A DNA stretch of 64,000 nucleotides, taken from positions 64,542 to 128,541 of the forward strand of contig JAUWNJ010000002.1 in NCBI GenBank assembly GCA_030612725.1, given 5' to 3'. The notes under the pieces were generated by a model, which worked only from the letters and a program-made list of their open reading frames with translations, made no database searches and was not told the DNA's origin. The DNA is from Planctomycetales bacterium. GTDB taxonomy: Bacteria; Planctomycetota; Phycisphaerae; SM23-33. Positions 15,991 to 55,098 of the stretch are shown in pieces. Within the stretch, counting starts at the first letter, position 1, and each line of letters begins with the position of its first letter. The position numbers and the translations under genes are program-made.

Positions 15991-17406
15991 TTAGGGGAGT
16001 TGTTCGACCAGCATTTTGAGCAGGGTTTTTGTGGGCATGGTTTTTGGTCCCGCCGGCGTCATCCATCGGCAGGAGTGGTGGTTTTCGGCGAGCATTTTTT
16101 CAACCCGTTGCACGGCAAGGACTACTGAAGAATGGTTCTTACCCGTGAATTGCCCTATTTCAGGAAAACTCATTCTCGTGTGTCGTCGGGTCAGGTACAT
16201 CGTGATGGCGCGGGCGAGGCTGACGGTGTGCGTTCGTCGCGATGAGTGGATGTCCGCCGGTGTGATTCCGAAGAATGCCGACGTAACCGTTTCGATCTCG
16301 CCGAGCGTTACGGCGCTGTCGGTTCTAACGAGGTGGTCGGCAAGTACGTCGCGGGTCAGGTCGAGCGTTACGGGTTCGCCTGCGAGTTTCGCCAGGGCAG
16401 AGAGTTTCACCAGCGCGCCTTCCAGTTCGCGGACCGAGCCGTGAATGTGCATGGCAATGTATTCCACCACGTCGCGCGGCGCGGGAAGTTTCATCTTCAA
16501 AGCGAGCCTGCGGAGAATTTTGATTCTCGTTGTCCGGTCGGGCGGGTCGATCCTGACGACCATTCCCGAAAGGAATCGGCTGACGAGTTGTTCTGTGAGT
16601 TTCCCAAGCAGACGCGGATGAGCGTCCGAAGCCATCACAATCTGCTTATCTGCGCCGTGGATGGTGTTGAAGGTGTGAAGAAACTCCTCCTGCGTAGCCT
16701 TCTTGGCGGCGAGAAAGTGAACGTCGTCGATGACCAGCAGGTCAAGCCGACGGTAGGTTTTCCGAAAGGCATCCGTTTTTTTATACCTTATGCCCTGGAC
16801 GAAATCGTTCGTGAACCGCTCTGCGGTGATGTATTTCCATGTGAGTTTTCTACCGTTGTTGTTTTGGGCGACGGCGTTGCAGATTCCCTGAAGAAGGTGA
16901 GTTTTTCCCACGCCGCAGGTTCCGTGGATGAACAGCGGGTTGAATGTTACCTTGCTGTTCTGAGCGACGGAAAGCGCCGCCGAGTATGCCAGTTTATTCG
17001 ATGTCCCGGTTACGAAATCCTCTAATTTATATCGCAGTTTGGACGCCGGCGCTAATTTTCGTCGGGCAGTTCCAGCCGTTCCACGATTCACAAGGTTTGC
17101 CTGAACGTCCAGTTGGCGTCCGCGAAGACGTCCGCTCAACGTCGGGTCCACGGAGACTGTTACGCGCCTTTGCCGACCGGTAACTTCCCTGCTTGCAGCC
17201 GCTAAGTCTTCCGCGAAGTGGCTTTCGATCCACCCGGCGATAAACGGATTGGCCGCATCGACCTTGACGTCCTCGTTTTCGACGGAGACCTGCGCAGCGT
17301 TCTTGAACCAGGCGTTAAATTTCTGTGTACCGATTCGCCTATGAACAACCTCAAGGACTGCGTCTGTCGGGTCCGTTCGGGCACATGCACCTATTTCGGC
17401 GGACAT
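15991..17406 (-). CDS. dnaA: chromosomal replication initiator protein DnaA
   Basis: AAA+ Walker A GTCGVGKTHLL, the sensor motif, and a C-terminal DNA-binding domain (...ITMYLTRRHTRMSFPEIGQFTGKNHSSVV). Confidence 0.95.
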   Translation of the reverse strand: MSAEIGACARTDPTDAVLEVVHRRIGTQKFNAWFKNAAQVSVENEDVKVDAANPFIAGWIESHFAEDLAAASREVTGRQRRVTVSVDPTLSGRLRGRQLDVQANLVNRGTAGTARRKLAPASKLRYKLEDFVTGTSNKLAYSAALSVAQNSKVTFNPLFIHGTCGVGKTHLLQGICNAVAQNNNGRKLTWKYITAERFTNDFVQGIRYKKTDAFRKTYRRLDLLVIDDVHFLAAKKATQEEFLHTFNTIHGADKQIVMASDAHPRLLGKLTEQLVSRFLSGMVVRIDPPDRTTRIKILRRLALKMKLPAPRDVVEYIAMHIHGSVRELEGALVKLSALAKLAGEPVTLDLTRDVLADHLVRTDSAVTLGEIETVTSAFFGITPADIHSSRRTHTVSLARAITMYLTRRHTRMSFPEIGQFTGKNHSSVVLAVQRVEKMLAENHHSCRWMTPAGPKTMPTKTLLKMLVEQLP

Positions 17407-17908
17407 TTTCTATTCCTTTTTCGACCGGGCAGTAATACCGCCGGAAACACACCAGTTCTTGCGGTATCGATAAAATCTGATCTGAAATCCTGTTTTATGA
17501 AACTCAACCAACGCATACGAATTTATCATCGACTCGACTACTGTCAAAGTGGTAATTGTCGCTTTTCTTATCCACATCAAGTCAAGCCTCGCTTGCAGAG
17601 AAACTTCCGAAGCAAAGTTTTTTTTCATTCACCGGTTATGCACAAAATTTCCACGAAGCGCGACCGTGAAAAGAAAAATTAGCAGGGATGCAGGGGATAA
17701 AGAGGATAAAACATCTTTTCAAAATTCAAACAGGTGCTTTTCTTCTTATTGAAATTCGCTTTTTATCCCGTGCATCCCCTGCATCCCTGCTAATTCTTTT
17801 CCCTGTATTCCTGCTGGTTCTTGAAAATTTGTTGTTTGACAATCGCCGTTCGAAAATCGACAATTGGCAATCGACAATCGGCAATTGGCAATTGAAGGAG
17901 TTTTTACA
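17407..17908. promoter_or_regulatory. putative oriC and dnaA promoter region
   Basis: Perfect DnaA box TTATCCACA at 17568-17576 and TTATGCACA at 17636-17644, plus 7/9 variants (TTATCCTCT rc near 17702, TTATCCCGT near 17766). A perfect 22-bp inverted repeat (17677-17698 / 17774-17795) flanks the AT-rich tract. Confidence 0.6.
17838..17895. repeat. tandem CAATYGRCAAT array in the 5' leader of the 17909 gene (family also at 19125-19160 and 46461-46504)
   Basis: gacaatcgccgttcgaaaatcgacaattggcaatcgacaatcggcaattggcaattg. Confidence 0.7.
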
Positions 17909-18571
17909 GTGAGATACTTCGTAGCGATTCCGGCATTGTGTCTGGTTTTTGCGTTGTTGACGGCCTCGGCTGAGCCGGTTCCCAAACCCGGCGTGGTGGC
18001 GAGAAGCTGGGAATTGGAATTCGAGTACACAACGCCCCAGCCATTTGAGATCCAGTTGCCCGGATGGAAGGAAAAGCGAACCTTCTGGTACATGCTTTAC
18101 ACTATAAGCAATCGAAGCGGCACTGATCGCATCTTCGTACCGGAGTTCTGCCTCTACACCGACACCGGTGATGTCCGCCGGGGCGGTGATCGGGTCTCCG
18201 CCGGGGTATTCCGAGCCATTAAAAAACGCCACAATAATCCGCTATTGACGGATATGGCCTTTATTACCGGGAAGGTACTCCAGGGTGCCGATAACGCCAG
18301 GGACGGCGTGGCGATATGGACGGATTTTGACCACAAAGCACGTGGTTTCAACGTATTTGTGGGAGGGCTTAGCGGCGAGCGGAAAAAGGTAAAACTGCCT
18401 AAACCCATCACCGTTACTGTTGCCGACGAGAACGGAAAAGAGAAAAAGGCAACCAAGACCGAAGTCGTTCTCTCTAAAACGCTGAGCCTGCGGTACTTCC
18501 TTCCCGGCGACGCATCCGCCAGATCGGCTGACACGCCCCAACTCCGGAAAAAGCAGTGGGTGATGCGGTAA
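17909..18571 (+). CDS. hypothetical secreted protein
   Basis: GTG start 7 nt after an AAGGAG RBS. Signal peptide VRYFVAIPALCLVFALLTASA. No known domain. Confidence 0.55.
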   Translation: MRYFVAIPALCLVFALLTASAEPVPKPGVVARSWELEFEYTTPQPFEIQLPGWKEKRTFWYMLYTISNRSGTDRIFVPEFCLYTDTGDVRRGGDRVSAGVFRAIKKRHNNPLLTDMAFITGKVLQGADNARDGVAIWTDFDHKARGFNVFVGGLSGERKKVKLPKPITVTVADENGKEKKATKTEVVLSKTLSLRYFLPGDASARSADTPQLRKKQWVMR

Positions 18572-18573
18572 TT

Positions 18574-18648
18574 ATTGCGGATTGTGGATTGTGGATTGCG
18601 GATTGCACACACTCGCTGATTTGTTGGAATCCGCAATCCACAATCCGA
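18574..18648. repeat. inverted repeat built of GGATTGTGGATT units (terminator-like hairpin)
   Basis: Left arm tgcggattgtggattgtggattgcggattgc, right arm gaatccgcaatccacaatccg, about 20-nt loop. Starts 3 nt after the stop of the 17909 gene. Confidence 0.75.
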
Positions 18649-18813
18649 AATTGGTAAAAAATCGGCTCAAACCTTACACAACATTCGTGCCGAAATGCAG
18701 TGCTGGAAAAATTAGTCAGACACGATTGACTCCGTATCGTTATGATTGTAGAATACGTGCGGTTAGATGAGGGATTTGTCAGCGATTTGGTTAGATGATT
18801 ATTGAGGTAGGAA

Positions 18814-19047
18814 ATGGCACATAAAAAGGGACAAGGTTCTTCTCGTAACGGTAGAGACTCAAACGCCCAGAATCGTGGCGTCAAGCGGTTCGGTGGTCAG
18901 ACGGTATTGGCCGGTACGATTATCGTTCGTCAATGCGGTACTCCCAAGAAACCCGGGGTCAACGTCGGAATTGGACGCGATAACACGCTCTTCGCCAAAA
19001 GCGACGGATGCGTACGCTTTCGCGGGCGCTTCGTGGACATCATCTAA
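18814..19047 (+). CDS. rpmA: 50S ribosomal protein L27
   Basis: [28 protein letters not shown] is the canonical bL27 N-terminus. Confidence 0.9.
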
Positions 19048-19184
19048 TTTCCAGTTTCCGATTTTCAATTGCGGTTGGATTCTGTGCTATCTTGACCGAC
19101 ATCAACACCCAGCGGAGAATTCCTGCGGATTGACAATCGACAATTGACAATCGGCAATCCCATAGGGATGCCTACGGCATTGAA

Positions 19185-20954
19185 ATGTTTTTGGACGAAG
19201 TGAACATTATGGTAATCGCCGGTAACGGCGGGGATGGGTGCGTAAGTTTCCGGCGAGAGAAATTCATCCCCCACGGCGGCCCGGACGGGGGAGACGGGGG
19301 AAACGGCGGGAGCGTTTATTGCCTGGCTGACCCTACCGTCAACACACTCTACCACATTGCCGGCAAACACCACTGGAAAGCCACTCACGGCGGCAGGGGA
19401 ATGGGTAAAAAATGCCATGGCCGCAACGGTGTTGATGTTGTCGTTCGCGTCCCGCCCGGAACGATTATCCACGATGCCGAGCACGGCATAGTGCTCAAAG
19501 ACCTCGCCGAAGAGGGCCAAAAGGTTTGCGTCGCACAAGGCGGCCACGGCGGCAAGGGCAACGTCCATTTCGCCACTTCAACCCATCAGACCCCGCGCGA
19601 AGCCATACCGGGTAAGTCAGGACAGACCCGCCGGCTTCACATGGAACTCAAACTCGTCGCCGACGTAGGGCTTGCAGGACTTCCGAACGCCGGTAAAAGC
19701 ACGCTCCTGCGACGACTGTCCGCCGCCAGACCCAAAGTGGCTGATTATCCGTTCACTACGCTTGAGCCGGTTCTCGGAATCGTGGAACTATCAGGGCATC
19801 GACGGTTCGTCATGGTTGATATTCCGGGGCTTATTGAAGGCGCGCATCGTGGCGTGGGGCTGGGCGAGGAGTTTCTCAGGCATGTCCAGCGGGCTTCGAT
19901 TCTCGTCCATATCGTCGATATCTGCCCGCAGACCGGCGATGCCGTCGAAAATTACCACACGATCAATGACGAACTGCGACAGTATTCGTCGGAATTGGCC
20001 GAAAAACCGCAGATCGTCGTCGCAAACAAAATGGACCTGACCGACAGCGACGAAAACCTCGCCCGATTCACCCAAGCCGTCGAATGCGATGTCATCGCCA
20101 TATCAGCAGTTACCGGAAAAGGGCTCGATAAACTGACCGAACGGATATGGAAAGTGCTGAAGGACAGGGACTTGGGACTAGGGATTAGGGAAAAGAAGAA
20201 ACATATGAACAAGACCGAATCCATTCTTGCTTGTGATGTCGGAAATTCTCGGATTGCGGTGGGATGCGTGGTCGATGAGGAAGTTTCGCACGTCCGGCAA
20301 GTTTCCCCCGACAATCTCGGCGATGCGCTGGCGGATTTATGGTCCGAGTGTCCCAAGCCGGCGATAATCGCAGCCTGTTCGGTCCAGGCTGAATATCTGG
20401 CGGAACTTGAAAAGGCGTCCAAACATATCGACCAGAAGGTTCTCGTGGTTGGGCGCGACCTTCCGCTGCCGATAGAGACGAATCTGTCCGAACCGGAAAG
20501 TATCGGAACCGACCGTCTTTGCGCAGCGGCGATGGCGTATCACCGCCTCGGCAGTGCCTGCGTCGTAGCCGATTTCGGTACAGCCATTACCATCGACTGC
20601 GTTAATGACGAGGGCGTCTTCCTCGGCGGAGCGATCCTGCCGGGGCTTGGTCTGTCCGCCGAGGCGTTGGCTAACGGTACGTCGGCCCTGCCTGCTGTGG
20701 AGTTGACCAAACCTGATTGGGTTTTCGGAGCCGACACACGCCAGGCAATTATCGGCGGGATAGTTACCGGCGCACGTGGCGCGATGAGGGAACTTGTCGA
20801 ATCCTACGCAACAGAATTAGGCGCTTGGCCCGAAGTAATCCTCACCGGCGGCGACGCCGAGATTGTCGGAGCAGGCTGCGACATAGTCAACGCCATCATC
20901 CCGGACTTGACGCTGTTGGGGGTTGCGCTATCGGCCCGGAATGTTCAGAAATGA
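19185..20954 (+). CDS. obg: GTPase Obg fused in frame to a type III pantothenate kinase (CoaX) domain
   Basis: Residues 1-320: Obg glycine-rich N-domain and G domain (GLPNAGKST, DIPGLIEGA, NKMD). Linker KDRDLGLGIREKKKH, then MNKTESILACDVGNSRIAVG..., a CoaX/Bvg-accessory fold, to the stop at 20954. No stop codon between the two parts. Confidence 0.8.
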   Translation: MFLDEVNIMVIAGNGGDGCVSFRREKFIPHGGPDGGDGGNGGSVYCLADPTVNTLYHIAGKHHWKATHGGRGMGKKCHGRNGVDVVVRVPPGTIIHDAEHGIVLKDLAEEGQKVCVAQGGHGGKGNVHFATSTHQTPREAIPGKSGQTRRLHMELKLVADVGLAGLPNAGKSTLLRRLSAARPKVADYPFTTLEPVLGIVELSGHRRFVMVDIPGLIEGAHRGVGLGEEFLRHVQRASILVHIVDICPQTGDAVENYHTINDELRQYSSELAEKPQIVVANKMDLTDSDENLARFTQAVECDVIAISAVTGKGLDKLTERIWKVLKDRDLGLGIREKKKHMNKTESILACDVGNSRIAVGCVVDEEVSHVRQVSPDNLGDALADLWSECPKPAIIAACSVQAEYLAELEKASKHIDQKVLVVGRDLPLPIETNLSEPESIGTDRLCAAAMAYHRLGSACVVADFGTAITIDCVNDEGVFLGGAILPGLGLSAEALANGTSALPAVELTKPDWVFGADTRQAIIGGIVTGARGAMRELVESYATELGAWPEVILTGGDAEIVGAGCDIVNAIIPDLTLLGVALSARNVQK

Positions 20955-22078
20955 ACTCGCCGACGATAACATCGGCATCGCTGGTTACTTCGCCCGCTCG
21001 CGGCGGAATCGCCGTCATTATCCTGACAGGCCCGGAAACCAAACGAATCATCGGCGAAATCTTCCGACCAGTATCGCAGACCGGCGGGCAGGGGAGCTTG
21101 GCATTGGGGCGAATTGTCCGTGATGGCGAGGTGCTCGACGAGGCGATTGTCTCAACACTCGCCGACGATTGTTGCGAGATTAACATCCACGGCGGGCCTC
21201 ACGTTGCGAGAAAAGTCCTTTCGCTATTGTCTGAACGAGGCGTACATATTGTTTCTGATTGCCAAGCCGATTCGACGCTGACGCTGTCTGCGCCGGGGCT
21301 GGGAAATTCCGCAATTACGGAAGAATTTCTCTCGGCATTACGCAAGGTATCTACGCCGCTTGGGGCATCGGCATTGAGTTGCCAATGGTCGGGCGGATTG
21401 TCGGTGTTGGCGAATCGGACGAAAGTCGATGCCGCTGCTCTCCGCGCTGCCGCCGATGCGATTCCGATAATGCGCCGATTACTGGAACCGGCTGAGATCG
21501 TCATCGCCGGACCCCCCAATGCCGGAAAAAGCGCCCTGGCTAACGCGCTGGTCGGGCGAAATGTCGCCATAGTGTCCGAAACGCCGGGCACGACGCGGGA
21601 CTGGGTACGCACTCTTACCGACGCCGACGGCGTACCAATCTGGTTGACCGACACTGCCGGACTTTGGGAAGAAGCCGAAGGTATCGACGCCGAAGCCGTC
21701 CGGCGAGCATGGGAACGGATCGAATCAGCCGACCTGGTTATCTGTGTTACCGTCGGCGACGATGACGGATATGACGGCCTGGTCGCACATCTCCACACGC
21801 TGACGAATGTCATTAATGTCGTCGGAAAATGCGATATTACCCGCCCGGAAGAATGTAAGGGGAAACTGGCAGTCTCTGCCAAGACATTTACCGGAATTAC
21901 CGATCTTCGACGGGCCATTTGCGAGGATTTGGGGTTTGGTGGCTTCGATCCGTCTTCAGCGATGGCATTCACCGAGCGCCAGGTCGAATGGCTTGGTATC
22001 GCTGCCGAGGCGATTGACCGGGGCGATCAGGCAGGAGCACGATTGGCATTGGAGAATCTGCTCCAAGCCGACGGATAG
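20951..22078 (+). CDS. mnmE: tRNA modification GTPase MnmE-like (shortened C-terminus)
   Basis: MnmE N-domain, then G domain GPPNAGKSALAN...TPGTTRD...DTAG. The ATG overlaps the coaX-part stop (ATGA). The protein ends ...LENLLQADG and lacks the usual C-terminal CxGK tail. Confidence 0.75.
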   Translation: MNSPTITSASLVTSPARGGIAVIILTGPETKRIIGEIFRPVSQTGGQGSLALGRIVRDGEVLDEAIVSTLADDCCEINIHGGPHVARKVLSLLSERGVHIVSDCQADSTLTLSAPGLGNSAITEEFLSALRKVSTPLGASALSCQWSGGLSVLANRTKVDAAALRAAADAIPIMRRLLEPAEIVIAGPPNAGKSALANALVGRNVAIVSETPGTTRDWVRTLTDADGVPIWLTDTAGLWEEAEGIDAEAVRRAWERIESADLVICVTVGDDDGYDGLVAHLHTLTNVINVVGKCDITRPEECKGKLAVSAKTFTGITDLRRAICEDLGFGGFDPSSAMAFTERQVEWLGIAAEAIDRGDQAGARLALENLLQADG

Positions 22079-22338
22079 CTATCCGTCGGCTTGGACATCT
22101 ACCGGTTGTGCAATGTGTAGCGTTTGGGTAAAATAGACAAGGTTGCAGAGAATTCCCGATGCTTCTAAAATTTATTAAAAATTTGTATTGAAACTGTCTG
22201 GTCCTGTGCTGTAAGATAGAGTGGTCATTTCGAGCGGTGAAGGTGCGGTTGATAATTGGGGTCAAACCACCATGCCTGCTCAATTCCAGTCATATGTGCT
22301 TTTCGGAATGTTCGAGATTTTATCGGAAATCGTGAGGC

Positions 22339-22551
22339 GTGGAGCGTACAGTGAAACTATGGATAAAAGTACGGCGTAACGACGGGGGCGGATTCACCGC
22401 TATCTGTCCGTCGCTTCCGGGGTGTGTCTCTGCCGGCCTGACCGCTCAACAGGCCAGAGAGAATCTGGAAGAGGCCATTCGTGGATACCTTGCCAGCGTA
22501 AATAACTTTGTACCGGCCCATCTCCACGAAATGCTGGTGTATCAGTCCTGA
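22339..22551 (+). CDS. HicB-like antitoxin / UPF0150 family protein (solitary)
   Basis: GGFTAICPSLPGCVSAGLTAQQARENLEEAIRGYL matches the UPF0150/HicB N-domain. No HicA-like gene adjacent. Confidence 0.55.
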   Translation: MERTVKLWIKVRRNDGGGFTAICPSLPGCVSAGLTAQQARENLEEAIRGYLASVNNFVPAHLHEMLVYQS

Positions 22552-34101: not shown

Positions 34102-34800
34102 TTAGAATTCGCACTCGAGGGCTGTTTTTTCCAGCCTGGCGAGTGTTTCGTTAACATCGGCGACTTCCAGCAGTCTTAACACCCGTTCGGGTCCGATGGG
34201 TCCGTCCGGTGGTTCAGGCGCAAGCGTGAAGGATAGTTTTCCGTCGTTCCCGCCTGACGACGATATGCCGATGCCGCCTATTTGTCCCTTGATGTCTATA
34301 AGTTTGTTTGGTTTATCATCGCCGGGGTTGCGACGGCGGGCGACTTCCCACTTTGCGGTCTGTTTCAGCGCCTCCAGACGGGCCTCTATTTGCTTCCGTT
34401 CGCAATCGGTCAATGATAATTCGTACGTTACCGCCTTGATTTTCGCCTTGGTCTTGTTCGGTAGCGGTTCGGTTTTTATCAGTTTCATTCCTTCGGGAAA
34501 CTGCTCGCCGAGGTGCAGACCCGGGTCTGACGCAGGTGAATCGGTTTTCAACTCGATTACCATCAATTCGCATCGGCTGCTTACGCCCACCGGGCGGGGC
34601 AGCGGCAGGGACAGTTTGGGACGGGGATTGAATCCTTCGGAGAATTTTATCGGTAGTCCGGCCCGAGCGGCTGAACGTTCGCACAGGCTCATCATGTTGC
34701 GGTGCGAGAGGAACCGCAAATCCCCCCCGACGGTGAACCACACCGCCCATTGCATTTTTGATTTTCGATTTTCGATTTTCGATTTTACCAGGGCGGACAT
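34102..34800 (-). CDS. DUF2344 (TIGR03936, radical-SAM-linked) family protein
   Basis: FTVGGDLRFLSHRNMMSLCERSAARAGLPIKFSEGFNPRPKLSL is the DUF2344 signature. The start may instead be the internal MQWAV at 34755; the first 15 codons run through a gattttc x4 tandem repeat. Confidence 0.65.
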   Translation of the reverse strand: MSALVKSKIENRKSKMQWAVWFTVGGDLRFLSHRNMMSLCERSAARAGLPIKFSEGFNPRPKLSLPLPRPVGVSSRCELMVIELKTDSPASDPGLHLGEQFPEGMKLIKTEPLPNKTKAKIKAVTYELSLTDCERKQIEARLEALKQTAKWEVARRRNPGDDKPNKLIDIKGQIGGIGISSSGGNDGKLSFTLAPEPPDGPIGPERVLRLLEVADVNETLARLEKTALECEF

Positions 34801-34851
34801 ACGGTATTCCGTTTTTTCAGTCCCTAATCCCTAGCCCCAAGTCCCTGTCTT

Positions 34852-36588
34852 TTAGTACGCTTCCGGCATCACTTCACGAATCTGGTTGCGCAGATAGGAG
34901 ACTATTTGTTTGTCTATATTTAATGTCGCCACATGCCGGGCGACCCGGCGGGCGTGTTCGATTGTTATTGAACGAATGACCTTCTTCAGTTCCGGTACAC
35001 TCGGCGGGGCCACCGAAAAAGTTCGCAGACCCATTCCCAGCAACAGAAGGATGTATTTCGGGTCGCTTCCCATCTCCCCGCAGAGCGAAACTCCTACATC
35101 ATATCGCTGTCCGGCGCGGATGACTTCCTTTATCAATCGCAGCACAGCCGGGTTGGCGGCAGTGAACAGCGGCGCGACCCGCTCATTGGTTCTATCGACC
35201 GCCAACGTGTACTGGATCAGGTCGTTGGTCCCGATTGAGAAGAAATCCACTTCCTGCGCGAACTGGTTGCACTGAAGCGCCGCCGAGGGGACTTCCATCA
35301 TCATCCCTACGGGCACGTCTGTGCGGACCTCGACGCCTTCTTCCTCCAGGTCTTCCATCACATCTCGCAGAATCATCTTTGCCTGGCGGAGTTCCATCAC
35401 CGTGGTAATCAGCGGGAACATGACTGATACCTCGCCTTTCATCGACGCCCGCAGAATTGCCCGCAACTGCGTCTTGAATAATTGCAGGTGCTGGAAGCAG
35501 AAGCGAATGCTTCGCAAGCCCAGGAACGGGTTTCGCTCCTGTATGAGCAAATGCGCCTGCGTGTACTTATCAGCGCCCAGATCGAGCGTGCGTATGCACA
35601 CGGGACGACCATCCATAGCCTCGATTACTTTGCAATACGCCTCGTAATGGTCCTCTTCGGTCGGTTCGGTTTCCTTTTCGAGGTAGAGAAATTCGGTTCG
35701 GTACAGCCCGACGCCCTGCCCGCCCCTGGCAAGGACATTCTCCGCTTCACTCGGAAATTCGATATTTCCCAGAAGCGTTATTTCATGCCCGTCCATCGTA
35801 ATGGCGGGTAAATCCCGCAGGCGATCCAGTTCGCGGGTGAATTCGACCTGGCGACGCAGGAATTGGCGATTTTCCTCTATGGTGGCTTCGTCAGGTTCGA
35901 TGATGACAAGGCCACGGTTACCGTCGATGATTACTATGTCTCCGGCGTTGACGGAAACGCTCACATCATTAAGCCCGACAACGGCGGGGATACCCAGAGC
36001 ACGGGCGACAATGGCGGTATGACTGGTCCGACCGCCGGCGTCGATTGCCAGACCCAGGATATGTTTGCGGTCCATGCTGGCCGTCTGGGAGGGCGTAAGG
36101 TCGTGGGCGAGCACGACTACGTCTTCGGTCAGGTGCCCAAGACCTTCCCTGCTTTCGCCGATTAATCGGCGGAGGATACGCTTCTCGACGTCATAGACGT
36201 CCTTGACTCTCTCTGCGAGATACTCCGGCATCTGGAGGAATTCCTTGGCGTACTCGCGCAGGACGGTGGCGACGGCGAATTCAGCCGTTACGCTTTCGGT
36301 TTTGATTTTGTCCCTGACTTTTTCCAGCAGGGCTTCATCGCCCAGCAGCGCAAGGTGGAAGTCGAAGATTGCTCCCGTTTCCTTTCCAAGCCGCTTGGCG
36401 GTGTTGTCGCGCAGTTCGGTCAGTTCTTCGCGTGCCCCAGTCAGGGCGTATTCGAGGCGTTCAGCCTCTTCGCCGGCGCGGTCGGCGCTTATATGCCGCT
36501 CGGGAATGCGATATTCCTCGGCATCCAGGACAACAGCCTGGCAGATCACCACGCCGGGTGAAACTCCGATGCCTTTCTTGATTTCCAT
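34852..36588 (-). CDS. ptsI: phosphoenolpyruvate-protein phosphotransferase (PTS enzyme I)
   Basis: Active-site His region GGRTSHTAIVARALGIPAVVG and a PEP-utilizing C-domain. Confidence 0.9.
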   Translation of the reverse strand: MEIKKGIGVSPGVVICQAVVLDAEEYRIPERHISADRAGEEAERLEYALTGAREELTELRDNTAKRLGKETGAIFDFHLALLGDEALLEKVRDKIKTESVTAEFAVATVLREYAKEFLQMPEYLAERVKDVYDVEKRILRRLIGESREGLGHLTEDVVVLAHDLTPSQTASMDRKHILGLAIDAGGRTSHTAIVARALGIPAVVGLNDVSVSVNAGDIVIIDGNRGLVIIEPDEATIEENRQFLRRQVEFTRELDRLRDLPAITMDGHEITLLGNIEFPSEAENVLARGGQGVGLYRTEFLYLEKETEPTEEDHYEAYCKVIEAMDGRPVCIRTLDLGADKYTQAHLLIQERNPFLGLRSIRFCFQHLQLFKTQLRAILRASMKGEVSVMFPLITTVMELRQAKMILRDVMEDLEEEGVEVRTDVPVGMMMEVPSAALQCNQFAQEVDFFSIGTNDLIQYTLAVDRTNERVAPLFTAANPAVLRLIKEVIRAGQRYDVGVSLCGEMGSDPKYILLLLGMGLRTFSVAPPSVPELKKVIRSITIEHARRVARHVATLNIDKQIVSYLRNQIREVMPEAY

Positions 36589-42965: not shown

Positions 42966-43886
42966 ATGGCGTTATTCAGGAAAACAATACAGCACCTTAC
43001 CGGCGGGTTGGCGCGGACGCGGAAGAAACTTATCGGTTCGTTGCGGTCGCTGCTGGTGGGGCGAAAAATAGACGACGATCTTCTCGATGAACTTGAAGAG
43101 CAGTTAATCCTCGCCGACATCGGCGTAACCACAGCGATGAGGATACGCGAGGACCTCCAGAACGCTTACAAAGAGAAAAAACTCCAAAGCGGCGACGAGG
43201 TGATAGACTTTCTCAAGTCCGAGATGAAGCAATACTGGCCTGAGGCCGACCGGAGCATTCATTTCGCCGAAACCGGGCTGACGGTGATCCTGGTAGCCGG
43301 GGTCAACGGTACCGGAAAGACGACCTCGGTAGCCAAACTGGCGCATTTGTTCAAGTCCGAGGGTAAAAAAGTCTGTCTCGCCGCTGCCGATACGTTTCGA
43401 GCGGCGGCTGTGGAACAACTGACTATCTGGGCTGAACGCATCGGCGTCGATATAATCAAGGGTTCTCGCGGTTCCGATCCCGCTGCCGTCGCTTTCGACG
43501 CCTGCGACGCCGCCATTGCCCGCGGCGCCGACGTCCTGCTGGTCGATACTGCCGGTCGGCTTCATACGCAGGACAACCTCATGCGCGAACTGGGCAAGAT
43601 TCGCAATGTAGTCGCCCGCAAAATCTCCAACGCTCCGCACGAAGTCCTGCTGGTTCTCGACGCGACCACAGGCCAAAACGCCATCAGCCAGGCGAAAGTC
43701 TTCACCGATACGATTGACGTTACGGGTATCTTCCTGGCCAAACTTGACGGCACCGCCAGGGGGGGAATCGTCGTCGCCATTCGGGACGAACTGTCCCTGC
43801 CGGTGAAATTCGTCGGTATCGGCGAAAAATACGAAGACGTCGAACCGTTCGACCCGGAATCATTCGTCGAAGCGCTGTTTAGTTAA
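42966..43886 (+). CDS. ftsY: signal recognition particle receptor FtsY
   Basis: NG domain: [31 protein letters not shown]. Confidence 0.9.
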
Positions 43887-43914
43887 AGGAAGGGTGTAGG
43901 GCGTAGGGCGTAGG

Positions 43915-44877
43915 ATGAGTAACAAAGTCGCGTTTATTTCTGATCCGGCGTATCTCGAACACCATACCGGTCTGGGGCATCCCGAATCGCCGCAACGTCT
44001 GGCGGCAATATGGGGAAAACTCGACGACGAGGGGCTTTGGGATGAACTGACACACATCGAACCGGTTCCCGCGAGCGTTGACGACTTGCTGATGGTGCAC
44101 GGGGGCGATTACATCGAACAAGTCCGGCAGGATGTCGAAGACGGGCGAACGATGCTTTCAACCGGTGATACGAATATCTGTCCGAAATCGTACGAAATCG
44201 CGATTCTGGCTGTCGGTGGGGCGATACGGGCTGTCGATACCGTTTGCAACGGCAAAGTCAATTCGGCCTTCTGTGCGGTCCGCCCGCCGGGGCATCATGC
44301 AACTGCCAACGCCGGCATGGGATTCTGCATCTTCAACAACGCTGCAATCGCCGCTCGATATGCACAGAAAAACTGCGGCATTGAGCGGGTTCTCATAGTT
44401 GATTGGGACGTCCACCACGGAAACGGGACGCAGGAGATTTTCTATGACGATCCGTCCGTTTTCTACTTCTCGACGCATCAGTTCGGTACCTATCCAATGC
44501 CGATGACAGGTTTGGGCTACGACGGTCAGAGAGGCAGCCACAGTGGCGGGGGGGCCAATATCAATTGTCCGCTCCCGATGGGGGCGGGAGATGATGAAAT
44601 CATCGCAGCCTTTACAGAGCGTCTCGTCCCAGCCATGGCGGAATTCTCGCCGGAACTGGTGATTATCTCTGCCGGTTTCGATTGCATCGCCAGCGACCCG
44701 ATCGGCGGCTTGGGTGTTACGGACGACGGTATCGCAGCCTTGACGAAAATCGTCATGGAAATCGCCGCCGCTTCAGCCAACGGGCGAATTGTCTCACTTC
44801 TGGAAGGCGGATACGACCTGTCCGGCCTGGCGTCGGCGGTGAACACGCATATACGAACGATGATGAAAGAGAGGTGA
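43915..44877 (+). CDS. histone deacetylase family protein (acetoin utilization AcuC-like)
   Basis: HDAC motifs: RPPGHHA, DWDVHHGNGTQ, GGYDL. Confidence 0.85.
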   Translation: MSNKVAFISDPAYLEHHTGLGHPESPQRLAAIWGKLDDEGLWDELTHIEPVPASVDDLLMVHGGDYIEQVRQDVEDGRTMLSTGDTNICPKSYEIAILAVGGAIRAVDTVCNGKVNSAFCAVRPPGHHATANAGMGFCIFNNAAIAARYAQKNCGIERVLIVDWDVHHGNGTQEIFYDDPSVFYFSTHQFGTYPMPMTGLGYDGQRGSHSGGGANINCPLPMGAGDDEIIAAFTERLVPAMAEFSPELVIISAGFDCIASDPIGGLGVTDDGIAALTKIVMEIAAASANGRIVSLLEGGYDLSGLASAVNTHIRTMMKER

Positions 44878-53256: not shown

Positions 53257-53387
53257 TTTCTAAACCTCCGGGGGCCTTGAAGCCTGATTACTCCGACAGT
53301 ACCGGGCTTATGGGTATATCGGCAGTAGAGGAGGGTCAGTTTGCTAACAGTTGGTACATAAAATGGGGGCAGGCCACCTTGATCGCG

Positions 53388-53531
53388 CTGTGTTCGCGTT
53401 TGCGCGCGCAAACGCGAACGTAAAAATCGGAGGAAATGAAAATTCCAAAAAAACTTTTCCCAAGGCCACCAAGGACTTATGGCGTCGCTATCCGTTTTGT
53501 GTTCGCGTTTGCGCGCGCAAACGCGAACGCA
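53388..53531. promoter_or_regulatory. two copies of a 33-bp direct repeat, each containing a perfect 28-bp palindrome, upstream of the PEP-CTERM protease gene
   Basis: gttcgcgtttgcgcgcgcaaacgcgaac at 53392-53419 and 53501-53528, 109 bp apart. They lie 136 and 245 nt upstream of the protease start. Confidence 0.6.
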
Positions 53532-53711
53532 AAAGTTAATACGGAGAGAATAGGGACTAGGGACTTGGGACTAGGGACTTGGAAAAAAGAAACAGATGGG
53601 CCGTTTAGGCAAGATGGGCAAAATAGGCAATGGCGGATTTTTTAAAATGGGCGTAAAAATGACACTAAAATACGCAAATCTATGCACGCCAAGGAGTTAT
53701 GGGTTTTGCAA

Positions 53712-53820
53712 TTTTTCCCAATTGTTCCGAATCGTTCCCAATCGTTCCGAATCGTTCCCAATCGTTCCCAATCGTTCCCAATTGTTCCGAATTGTTCCGT
53801 TTCGTTCCGTTTCGTTCCAC
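53712..53820. repeat. tandem array of about 11 copies of the 10-mer ATCGTTCCCA (variants ATTGTTCCGA, TTCGTTCCGT)
   Basis: Unit boundaries were read directly from the sequence. No spacers, so this is not CRISPR-like. Confidence 0.85.
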
Positions 53821-53892
53821 AACGGCGTGGCCCGATTCCGGTATCCGCCTGTGTGCGGCTCGAAAGAAGCGAGGGCCAGCCTGTCGCCAAAG

Positions 53893-54354
53893 TTACATAT
53901 CTTCGTGGTCAATAAGCATGAAGCCGCGTTTTGTCAATATCTGAGCGGACAGGACGTGGTCGTCGGTGTGAAAGACCAGCACCGGATAATCGTTGTGCCG
54001 GAGGAACAGCGGATAGGCAAACTGGATGTTCAGTTCGGCGGCAACGAGCGCCTTGCAGACCTGGCTGAGCGTGTCGATATCGTGCAATGCGACGGCCAGT
54101 ACGTCGGATTCGGTGAATGCCGCACCGGCGTCGATGAGTTTCACACGCGCCTTACCGACGTCGGTGAAGATCATGCGCACCACAGCCCAGTCTGCGGAAT
54201 CCACCACGGACAGACCTGCAATTTCAACGTCGGCTTCGTCCAGAGTAGTAAGCATCTTGCTCAATCTTCCGACGCGGTTGGGCATGAAGATATTGAACTG
54301 GCGGATGGACGGGGTTTCGTACGCTCGCTCGATTTGAGGTCCGGACATGGCCAT
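53893..54354 (-). CDS. ACT domain-containing protein (tandem ACT-like repeats)
   Basis: Two beta-alpha-beta-beta-alpha-beta-like halves, e.g. QFNIFMPNRVGRLSKMLTTLDEADVEI. Confidence 0.5.
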   Translation of the reverse strand: MAMSGPQIERAYETPSIRQFNIFMPNRVGRLSKMLTTLDEADVEIAGLSVVDSADWAVVRMIFTDVGKARVKLIDAGAAFTESDVLAVALHDIDTLSQVCKALVAAELNIQFAYPLFLRHNDYPVLVFHTDDHVLSAQILTKRGFMLIDHEDM

Positions 54355-54432
54355 AACGAGAGATACTATAACCTCAAAAGGTCTGAAAGCAAAGACAGCA
54401 AGAGATTTTTCTTTCAGCGGGTGATGGTTTTT

Positions 54433-55098
54433 TTAATGTATAAGCGCTTTTACGCCCAGCGCGATACCCATGACGGTTACTGCTACTCCGCATAGACCGT
54501 TGGCGATTCTGAAAAATGTCGGTCCGATTTTCTGCGGCCTGAGGCGGACAAGCACAGTAATGAAAGCGAACCAACATGTCATTCCACATGAAACGGCGGC
54601 TACTCCGAGCCACATTCCCACGCTTCCCGCTGATACATCGGCTCCCTGGAGCCAGGCCGGTCCGACTCCCACCCACCAGAGAAACGTGGCAGGATTCAGG
54701 AACGTCAGAATAGCGCCGGTCAAGAGGTCTCCCCCGACACCTGTGCGTCGATGTCGCATTCGTTCGGCGCGGATGGCGGCCTGGACTCGTCGGGACGGAA
54801 CAACCGCCTTGCGAAGGATGAACAGTCCAAGAAGCAGGATGATACAGGCAGCGGGCAGCTCCACGTACTGCCGGATCGAATCGACGTCCGTGTATTTCAA
54901 GAGCGTGCTTCCGCCCCACATCACCAGGACCACTTCGCAGGTTTCGAAGGCTACCGATCCGATACCGACCCACATGGTCCTCGTCCAGTGCATCACCAGT
55001 CCGCGACGAATGGCGATCATATTGACCGGACCGACGACGGGCGCCGCCGCCATCAGACCCAATCCGAACGCCCATGCTAGAACTAAAATACTCGGCAC
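54433..55098 (-). CDS. LysE/RhtB family amino-acid exporter
   Basis: Six TM helices and a LysE-type N-terminal motif. The overlapping 264-aa ORF in another frame is judged spurious. Confidence 0.8.
   Translation of the reverse strand: MPSILVLAWAFGLGLMAAAPVVGPVNMIAIRRGLVMHWTRTMWVGIGSVAFETCEVVLVMWGGSTLLKYTDVDSIRQYVELPAACIILLLGLFILRKAVVPSRRVQAAIRAERMRHRRTGVGGDLLTGAILTFLNPATFLWWVGVGPAWLQGADVSAGSVGMWLGVAAVSCGMTCWFAFITVLVRLRPQKIGPTFFRIANGLCGVAVTVMGIALGVKALIH

Follow-up and report, generated by a model that had tools for sequence, protein, structure and literature searches.

An in-frame Obg-CoaX fusion, probably arisen by loss of a repeat-embedded stop codon, in a Planctomycetales genome

In a stretch of 64,000 nucleotides from the genome of a Planctomycetales bacterium (GenBank assembly GCA_030612725.1, contig JAUWNJ010000002.1, positions 64,542 to 128,541 of the forward strand; the whole stretch is hereafter called the window), the genes for the GTPase Obg and for CoaX, a type III pantothenate kinase (PanK-III), are joined in one open reading frame (ORF). 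The obg::coaX frame is uninterrupted over 589 codons plus stop (19185-20954, + strand), without internal stop or frameshift, and its 589-aa product is composed of a complete short-form Obg (residues 1-329), a linker (330-340) and a complete PanK-III (341-589). With a probability of about 0.72, the fusion arose by stop loss, in that an obg TAG embedded in a variable heptamer repeat was lost, and is a side effect of repeat instability with little or no effect on fitness. A single in-frame Obg-CoaX fusion with a linker of translated repeat DNA had been proposed in an initial annotation made from the sequence alone, and this proposal is borne out by Pfam and NCBIfam domain matches on both halves.

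The Obg part (codons 1-329, 19185-20171, + strand) contains the Obg fold and the G domain and lacks the C-terminal OCT domain, according to Pfam and NCBIfam. In Pfam, GTP1_OBG (PF01018) matches residues 4-157 with 196 bits (cutoff 27) and MMR_HSR1 (PF01926) matches residues 160-282, and the Obg equivalog models of NCBIfam extend over residues 1-326 (TIGR02729, 445.6 bits for a cutoff of 280.25; PRK12299, 444.6 bits for a cutoff of 300). The nucleotide-binding motifs G1-G5, read in the translation, are intact (GLPNAGKS, YPFTT, DIPG, NKMD and SAV). The closest solved structures are those of Bacillus subtilis (1LNZ), Thermus thermophilus (1UDX) and Escherichia coli ObgE on the 50S subunit (4CSU), with 50-55% similarity over the Obg fold and G domain (E 1e-95 to 1e-101). 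In a search of 5.8 billion proteins, the nearest Obg proteins, from metagenome-assembled genomes (MAGs) of Phycisphaerae/Planctomycetota, were stand-alone and 327-345 aa long. Obg ends at the same point in relatives (329 aa in both P0131 and P0002), the native C-terminus of Obg is KDRD, seen also in P0001 and P0131, and the fusion protein of the window falls in the cluster of P0001. Because many Obg family members bear an extra domain after the G domain, a C-terminal appendage on Obg is plausible; 1UDX, for example, has 416 aa, compared with 329 aa for the Obg part here.

The CoaX part (codons 341-589 plus stop, 20205-20954, + strand) is matched by Pan_kinase (PF03309) at residues 347-539 with 149 bits (cutoff 24.7), which covers profile positions 1-204 of 205, and by the PanK-III subfamily model TIGR00671 over residues 348-582 (138 bits, cutoff 58.2). 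The best equivalog-level NCBIfam model, NF009855, scores below its cutoff (156.6 bits versus 233); judged by these profiles, the CoaX assignment stands at the subfamily level only, as is usual for divergent phyla. In an alignment of 46 sequences (A3), the residues of PHOSPHATE-1 (D351, G353 and N354), GxDR (D443 and R444) and PHOSPHATE-2 (D463, G465, T466 and A467) are invariant or at least 90% conserved. Solved PanK-III relatives are 2H3G, 3DJC, 3BEX and 2F9T. In the AlphaFold2 model built on A3, the predicted local distance difference test score (pLDDT) is above 90 over residues 350-589. The Obg half of the model is poor (pLDDT 30-60), with only three sequences covering Obg in that alignment, and pLDDT falls below 50 for residues 331-342, between the last Obg helix (314-327) and the first CoaX strand (346-352), so that the linker is predicted to be disordered. 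Given this linker and the natural C-terminal domains of many Obg proteins, the fusion protein would be made and would keep both activities.

Separate synthesis of CoaX is also probable. The nearest 120 CoaX clusters are all stand-alone proteins of 231-335 aa, most of them 249-257 aa, which fits a start at Met341. It had been noted at first that coaX keeps its own ATG and leader, and this stands: the ATG lies at 20205-20207, and the 24 nt before it are the same as in L001, an unfused relative described below. Since these 24 nt are shared with a genome in which coaX must be translated alone, internal initiation probably continues to yield free CoaX. A Shine-Dalgarno role for AAGAAG or AGGGA was considered and is not claimed, the G-tract being at least 13 nt from the ATG; motifs resembling Shine-Dalgarno sequences were found at about 18 of 45 crude gene starts in the window.

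The two parts are joined across a G-rich heptamer array of four units (AGGGACT at 20166-20172, TGGGACT at 20173-20179, AGGGATT at 20180-20186 and AGGGAAA at 20187-20193; 20166-20193, + strand), detected by TRF with a period of 7 and 4.4 copies and containing four GGG tracts with 4-nt loops. The junction reads GAC TTG GGA CTA GGG ATT AGG GAA AAG AAG AAA CAT ATG and is translated as KDRDLGLGIREKKKHMNK; a 40-mer across it is GACAGGGACTTGGGACTAGGGATTAGGGAAAAGAAGAAAC, and the predicted junction peptides are DLGLGIR or VLKDRDLGLGIR. Codon 330 (TTG, Leu; 20172-20174, + strand) is the stop-loss site, corresponding to the obg TAG of L001 and L009, with T at position 20173 here and A there. The two TAGs that remain in the array (20178-20180 and 20185-20187) are both out of the obg frame. 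The linker itself (codons 330-340, LGLGIREKKKH; 20172-20204, + strand) consists of the former stop and the 30-nt obg-coaX spacer, that is, the rest of the array and an A-rich leader. A linker had been recognized from the start, and its length was put at 15 residues; the true linker has 11 residues (L330-H340). Likewise, the repeat GACAGGGACTTGGGACTAGGGATTAGGG had been correctly identified and placed one base off, at 20164-20191 instead of 20163-20190. The array sequence putatively forming a G-quadruplex (G4) is AGGGACUUGGGACUAGGGAUUAGGGA. When G4 formation is allowed in ViennaRNA, the minimum-free-energy structure of the junction array includes a three-layer G4 (-9.36 versus -6.20 kcal/mol), and the same type of structure is predicted for all three G-heptamer arrays of the window, two of which are described further below.

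Comparison of the junction in the seven relatives examined in this clade (L001, L055, L009, L008, L010, L002 and L006; 76-94% DNA identity to the window) indicates how the frame came to be open. Alignment with the obg and coaX genes of relatives had been suggested as a way of looking for a stop codon, and one was present in 7/7, with separate genes. A G-heptamer array occurs at the 3' end of obg in 7/7 of these relatives, with varying unit numbers, and obg ends within or just after it in each, the TAG being inside the array in 6/7. This does not fit the initial proposal that a dispersed repeat came to occupy the obg stop and spacer, since the array was already at the junction. In L001 the junction reads GAT TAG GGA CTT GGG ATT AGG GAA AAG AAG AAA CAT ATG, with the same length and frame as in the window, and is translated as KDRD*GLGIREKKKHMNK; its 33 linker nucleotides read *GLGIREKKKH in the obg frame. 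The window has TTG in place of TAG at codon 330 and, within the array, two further changes of synonymous type. An indel or frameshift is thus not what separates the window allele from its relatives, and the event is interpreted as loss of a repeat-embedded stop rather than an insertion, because L001, of equal length and frame, differs by TAG to TTG. Moreover, the spacer of L006 is in frame with a single TAG, one substitution short of fusion.

The other relatives (L055, L009, L008, L010 and L002) have different unit numbers and different Obg tails. L001 and L009 end in KDRD-TAG, L055 in KDRDQGPGTRD-TAG, L002 and L006 in EKGLGTRD-TAG and L010 in KERE-TAG; in L008 the tail is KDRDQGFGTWDQGKEEERNI-TGA, and the TGA overlaps the ATG after the A-rich leader. 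The C-terminal tail of Obg is hypervariable because the number of units and the W and Y positions within them vary between genomes. In two of the relatives, an ORF of about 93 codons lies between obg and coaX (L009, 5026-5330; L008, 5040-5370), coding for a predicted membrane protein (MLRIGLRILGVIAVTVLA...), with G-heptamer arrays and an A-rich leader on either side. An element resembling an insertion sequence follows this small ORF in L008 and breaks the contig; coaX of the same MAG is found on L012.

From these comparisons, a route to the fusion can be proposed. A WGGGAYT repeat of about 3-5 units occupies the obg 3' end, and in relatives its unit boundaries (...AYTAGGG...) supply the obg TAG; the A-rich leader and the coaX ATG come next, within 15-37 nt. 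As seven equals one modulo three, each TAG of the array covers another reading frame. A change from A to T at 20173 would then remove the in-frame TAG and leave the other two out of frame, and the same result would follow if a five-unit array such as that of L009 lost one unit. The 30-nt stretch up to the coaX ATG is divisible by three in length and free of stops, and it is because of this in-frame, stop-free spacer that ribosomes translating obg would continue into coaX. The product would be a protein of about 64 kDa, made up of Obg, LGLGIREKKKH and CoaX.

Fused proteins of the same kind were found in two other places. In a second lineage of Phycisphaerae, about 48% identical and with the same order rpmA-obg-coaX-mnmE, 594-aa fusions occur as P0012, P0127 and P0128, on three contigs of 33-138 kb from different projects (JGI and NCBI), and sisters in the same 90% identity cluster as P0012 encode the two proteins separately, with 333 and 258 aa. 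The junction reads TGG GGG TGA GCG GCC ATG in the separate form and TGG GGG GGA GCG GCC ATG in the fused form, with a 6-nt in-frame spacer; this TGA/GGA change is the sole relevant difference (GGGGGTGA versus GGGGGGGA) and lies inside a G-run (L049 and L054 versus L050-L053, alignment A1). This fusion is independent of that in the window, and the difference may be a true polymorphism or a miscall in the G-run. A third fused protein is P0075 (598 aa), the linker of which is unrelated and contains an internal ERNSFRS/ERNEFRS repeat. The fused architecture is not clade-wide, being limited to the window genome, the P0012 sub-clade (3/9 cluster members) and P0075. Close relatives include both fused and unfused forms, and in no deep clade has the fusion become fixed.

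Several points weigh against this explanation. Among species representatives, 17 loci had obg next to coaX and none was fused, nor was any of the 54 members of ten neighbouring Obg clusters, in which no protein exceeded 381 aa. A genome of the same species was not found for comparison, the nearest relatives having 88-94% DNA identity. T to G within a G-run is a context known for systematic Illumina miscalls, and part of the apparent recurrence, namely the change in the second lineage, could be sequencing error. The identical 589-aa product is encoded on the Logan contig SRR12623518_221549 (L048), which is 100% identical over 4329 nt (window 17763-22091), and the identical protein has the NCBI record P0134, from a contig of 196,930 nt that is probably the source of the window; the Logan contig may share its sequencing run with the source assembly, in which case an assembler artefact is excluded and a low-coverage consensus error is not. 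Lastly, the fusion is not conserved, which disfavours a selected function. For the same reason, it is inferred to be a non-adaptive by-product of repeat instability in a packed operon, neutral or slightly deleterious, and not a selected bifunctional enzyme.

The first alternative to be weighed is that the allele is a sequence or consensus error, the true codon 330 being TAG (A at 20173), so that the genes are separate and the fusion exists in the assembly only. A single base decides between the fused and the separate state, and all species-level relatives are unfused. Moreover, the source appears to be a MAG, as are the relatives and cluster members, and the sole second record of the protein, the Logan contig with its 4.3 kb of complete identity, perhaps derives from the same reads. 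However, two different assemblers agree on the sequence, the window allele differs from L001 at three array positions and not at one, A to T is atypical of systematic errors, and analogous stop-loss fusions stand on three independent contigs of another lineage. An error is thus considered unlikely, though it retains some weight. A chimeric assembly path between alleles like those of L001 and L009 was also considered and was rejected, since the window substring CTTGGGACTAGGGATT is present in neither. A scan of metagenome contigs with the conserved 20-mer from the obg 3' end (GAACGGATATGGAAAGTGCT) gave two unrelated chance matches only and no strain-level variants.

Second, the fusion could be adaptive, with coenzyme A (CoA) biosynthesis tethered to a GTPase that binds (p)ppGpp and acts in ribosome assembly, or slippage could drive phase variation between fused and separate forms. 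In favour of selection or a switch, fusions arose independently at least two or three times among lineages of Phycisphaerae, and the fused form persists over sequence-divergent contigs within the P0012 clade. An in-frame TAG would return if one unit of the window allele were lost or duplicated, and unit number varies among relatives, this being variation between species. However, the lack of any deep clade fixed for the fusion, and the mixture of both forms in one 90% identity cluster, argue the other way, as does the absence of Obg from all of the 120 nearest CoaX clusters. In a phmmer search of 1.84 billion representatives, 0/150 of the best 50%-identity representatives matched both halves, with the reservation, which applies to both counts, that clusters with unfused representatives can hide fusions. 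In its shortness (4 units) and imperfection the array differs from classical contingency repeats, and a literature search found no link between Obg and pantothenate kinase and no description of such a composite. A role in phase variation was judged unlikely for repeats of this type (Rehm et al., PMC4692102). Both forms of this explanation are therefore considered quite improbable. A broader version, in which the G4-type array acts as a mutational switch, TAG codons moving in or out of frame whenever units are gained or lost or a W position changes, and generates variable Obg tails and a recurrent Phycisphaerae Obg-CoaX fusion, physically coupling CoA synthesis to an alarmone-sensing GTPase of ribosome assembly and selected in some lineages, is regarded as very improbable.

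Insertion of a mobile or dispersed 30-bp element at the obg-coaX boundary, replacing the stop and spacer and happening to be open in frame, is hardly credible: the same 28-mer does occur elsewhere in the window (27/28), with a similarity of 89% over 38 nt once some 10 nt on its 5' side are included, and arrays flank the small membrane-protein ORF inserted in L009 and L008, which makes them rearrangement sites, but the array is at the junction in 7/7 relatives with obg terminating in or just after it, L001 is of identical length and has the same translated spacer with only the stop codon differing, target duplication and other insertion signatures are absent, and 7/10 of the extra matches are ancestral obg coding sequence (KVLK), present also in relatives with other arrays.

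The fused gene of this genome, which is of Phycisphaerae type, lies in a tight co-directional cluster, rpmA-obg-coaX-mnmE, the order of which is common to L001-L005 and L049-L055. The cluster is opened by rpmA, coding for ribosomal protein L27 (18814-19047, + strand; Pfam Ribosomal_L27, E 5.7e-32), and a promoter-like TTGACT-17-TAGAAT, by consensus match only, is found upstream at 18726-18754; no promoter-like or terminator-like site was seen at the obg-coaX junction. Downstream, a gene for a TrmE/MnmE-like GTPase (20951-22078, + strand; Pfam TrmE_N plus MMR_HSR1) begins in an ATGA overlap, as was first noted, with the coaX TGA at 20952-20954 and the mnmE ATG at 20951-20953 read directly in the sequence; the overlap is also called in relatives. 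The TrmE/MnmE-like protein, with TrmE_N and a G domain, has 375 aa here and 375-402 aa in relatives, shorter than the approximately 450 aa of a typical MnmE. Between mnmE and a convergent gene for an alpha-mannosidase of glycoside hydrolase family 38 (GH38), a 70-codon ORF (22339-22551) has a weak match to HicB-like antitoxins or UPF0150; a partner toxin gene was not noticed.

Two further G-heptamer arrays are present in the window, as had been indicated at the outset. The second (34822-34849, - strand) is 27/28 identical to the junction 28-mer and has four GGG tracts; the 30-bp element had been said to recur in reverse at 34819-34849 and was recovered at these coordinates with one mismatch, where shuffled sequences give an expectation of 0. 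It begins 2 nt after the TAA of a gene for a phosphoenolpyruvate (PEP)-utilising enzyme (34852-36588, - strand) and lies some 20 nt upstream of the start codon (ATG) of a gene with DUF2344 (34102-34800, - strand). The third (53551-53582, + strand), described initially as a related tagggact array and confirmed as four units of TAGGGAC/TTGGGAC with four GGG tracts, lies in a repeat-rich, probably non-coding stretch. The ORF that follows it (53596-54495, 299 codons) has no Pfam hit and a repeat-like translation and is probably not a gene, the region from about 53260 to 54370 being probably non-coding and repeat-rich. A common arrangement of array, A-rich leader and ATG as a start-codon cassette was considered for all three arrays; it holds for coaX and DUF2344 and was abandoned as a general scheme, the ORF after the third array looking non-coding. 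Inside that ORF, a 10-nt tandem array of TTCCSAATCG runs through about 10 copies (53715-53818), and just upstream of the third array a 37-nt palindromic element (TGTTCGCGTTTGCGCGCGCAAACGCGAACG) occurs twice (53389-53425 and 53495-53531), 92% complementary and 69 nt apart.

In total, TRF reports about 24 period-7 arrays in the window, of several unit families and almost all intergenic; among them, the obg-coaX array alone lies in a credible coding ORF. The intergenic arrays have 4-6 units (e.g. GTAATTC, TTTCGGA, AGCAGTC and CAATTGG), and a stop codon precedes many of them by 1-17 nt. Many are paired with their own reverse complement 20-130 nt off, up to 89% complementary (18574-18606/18628-18646, 28885-28908/29101-29143, 36597-36628/36660-36683, 42240-42271/42288-42319, 42766-42796/42888-42925, 59035-59065/59165-59195 and 60585-60601/60693-60709), and these inverted pairs may be hairpin or terminator-like elements. 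Another G-rich array (AGGGCGT x3.4, 43891-43914, four GGG tracts) occupies the whole 28-nt spacer of the co-directional ORFs 42966-43886 and 43915-44877. Upstream of dnaA (15991-17406, - strand), the region 17674-17900 contains, besides an inverted repeat of 38 nt (17674-17711/17761-17798), CAATTGG heptamers and repeated 9-mers (ATCCCCTGC), and is possibly a replication origin region. A 94-nt inverted repeat (62089-62182/62607-62700), 84% complementary, encloses 424 nt and contains 9-mer arrays of GGATTACAG; this is perhaps a small element, either mobile or structured.

If the stop-loss origin is correct, the locus offers a clean and datable case of the birth of a composite protein, in which two essential genes merged after loss of a stop in an unstable repeat, and the sister genomes L001 and L006 capture the state that is one substitution away. 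G-rich heptamer repeats of cyanobacteria and xanthomonads are found also in Planctomycetota, where they render the C-terminal tail of an essential GTPase hypervariable. Annotators should neither read an Obg-CoaX protein as evidence that the two pathways are functionally linked nor "correct" it as a frameshift. Provided that the fusion protein is made, it would be a natural test of how far Obg tolerates a dimerising C-terminal cargo of 27 kDa.

Each component of the locus has known counterparts. Proteins of the Obg/CgtA family (1LNZ, 1UDX and 4CSU) share the Obg fold and G domain and often have an extra C-terminal domain; their natural C-terminal domain is OCT or TGS-like, whereas the appendage here is an unrelated kinase of the ASKHA fold. 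BirA-CoaX ("Baf"-type) bifunctional proteins are N-terminally fused PanK-III enzymes, indicating, as here, that PanK-III tolerates a foreign N-terminal domain; a literature search on BirA-CoaX gave nothing relevant. Their partner is a biotin protein ligase and the fusion is conserved in its own lineages, in contrast to Obg-CoaX.

For the repeat, the closest parallel is the class of quadruplex-forming G-rich heptamer repeats, with GGGGA(C/T)T as the unit in Nostoc PCC 7120 and GGGNATC as that of Xanthomonas, among which four units are strongly preferred (Rehm et al. 2015, PMC4692102). The window arrays (WGGGAYT x4, with a predicted G4, and at or next to stop codons in the case of the second array and, in relatives, of the junction array) share with them the 7-nt unit, the G-tract, the A(C/T)T tail and the combination of four units and four G-tracts. 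All three are built of four tandem 7-nt units with a G-tract of at least three, as in that class, and by its units the junction repeat belongs to it. They differ in having a planctomycete host, a tract of three instead of four Gs and a predicted G4, and in that the junction array is translated as a linker. Intergenic TAACTGA heptamer repeats of Beggiatoaceae form many arrays of 2-6 units near gene boundaries, several of them just upstream of start codons (MacGregor 2015, PMC4679880). These repeats and the short tandemly repeated repetitive (STRR) heptamers of cyanobacteria resemble the window in their many near-gene intergenic arrays (about 24 here); their unit sequences are different, and the arrays of the window are often inverted pairs directly after stop codons.

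Finally, stop-loss fusions of operon genes, the "Rosetta-stone" composites, likewise have a short in-frame spacer that becomes translated, intact parental domains and a lineage-restricted, recurrent occurrence. Unlike the usual cases, the lost stop lies here inside a hypervariable heptamer repeat, so that the fusion is created by repeat dynamics instead of by a chance point mutation in non-repeated DNA. Both the process, in which neighbouring genes fuse by stop loss, and the repeat class are well known, and the locus is a real but fairly ordinary fusion at the strain or species level. What is modestly new is the placement of an essential gene's stop in a G4-type heptamer repeat, together with the hypervariable Obg tail and the occasional Obg-CoaX fusion.

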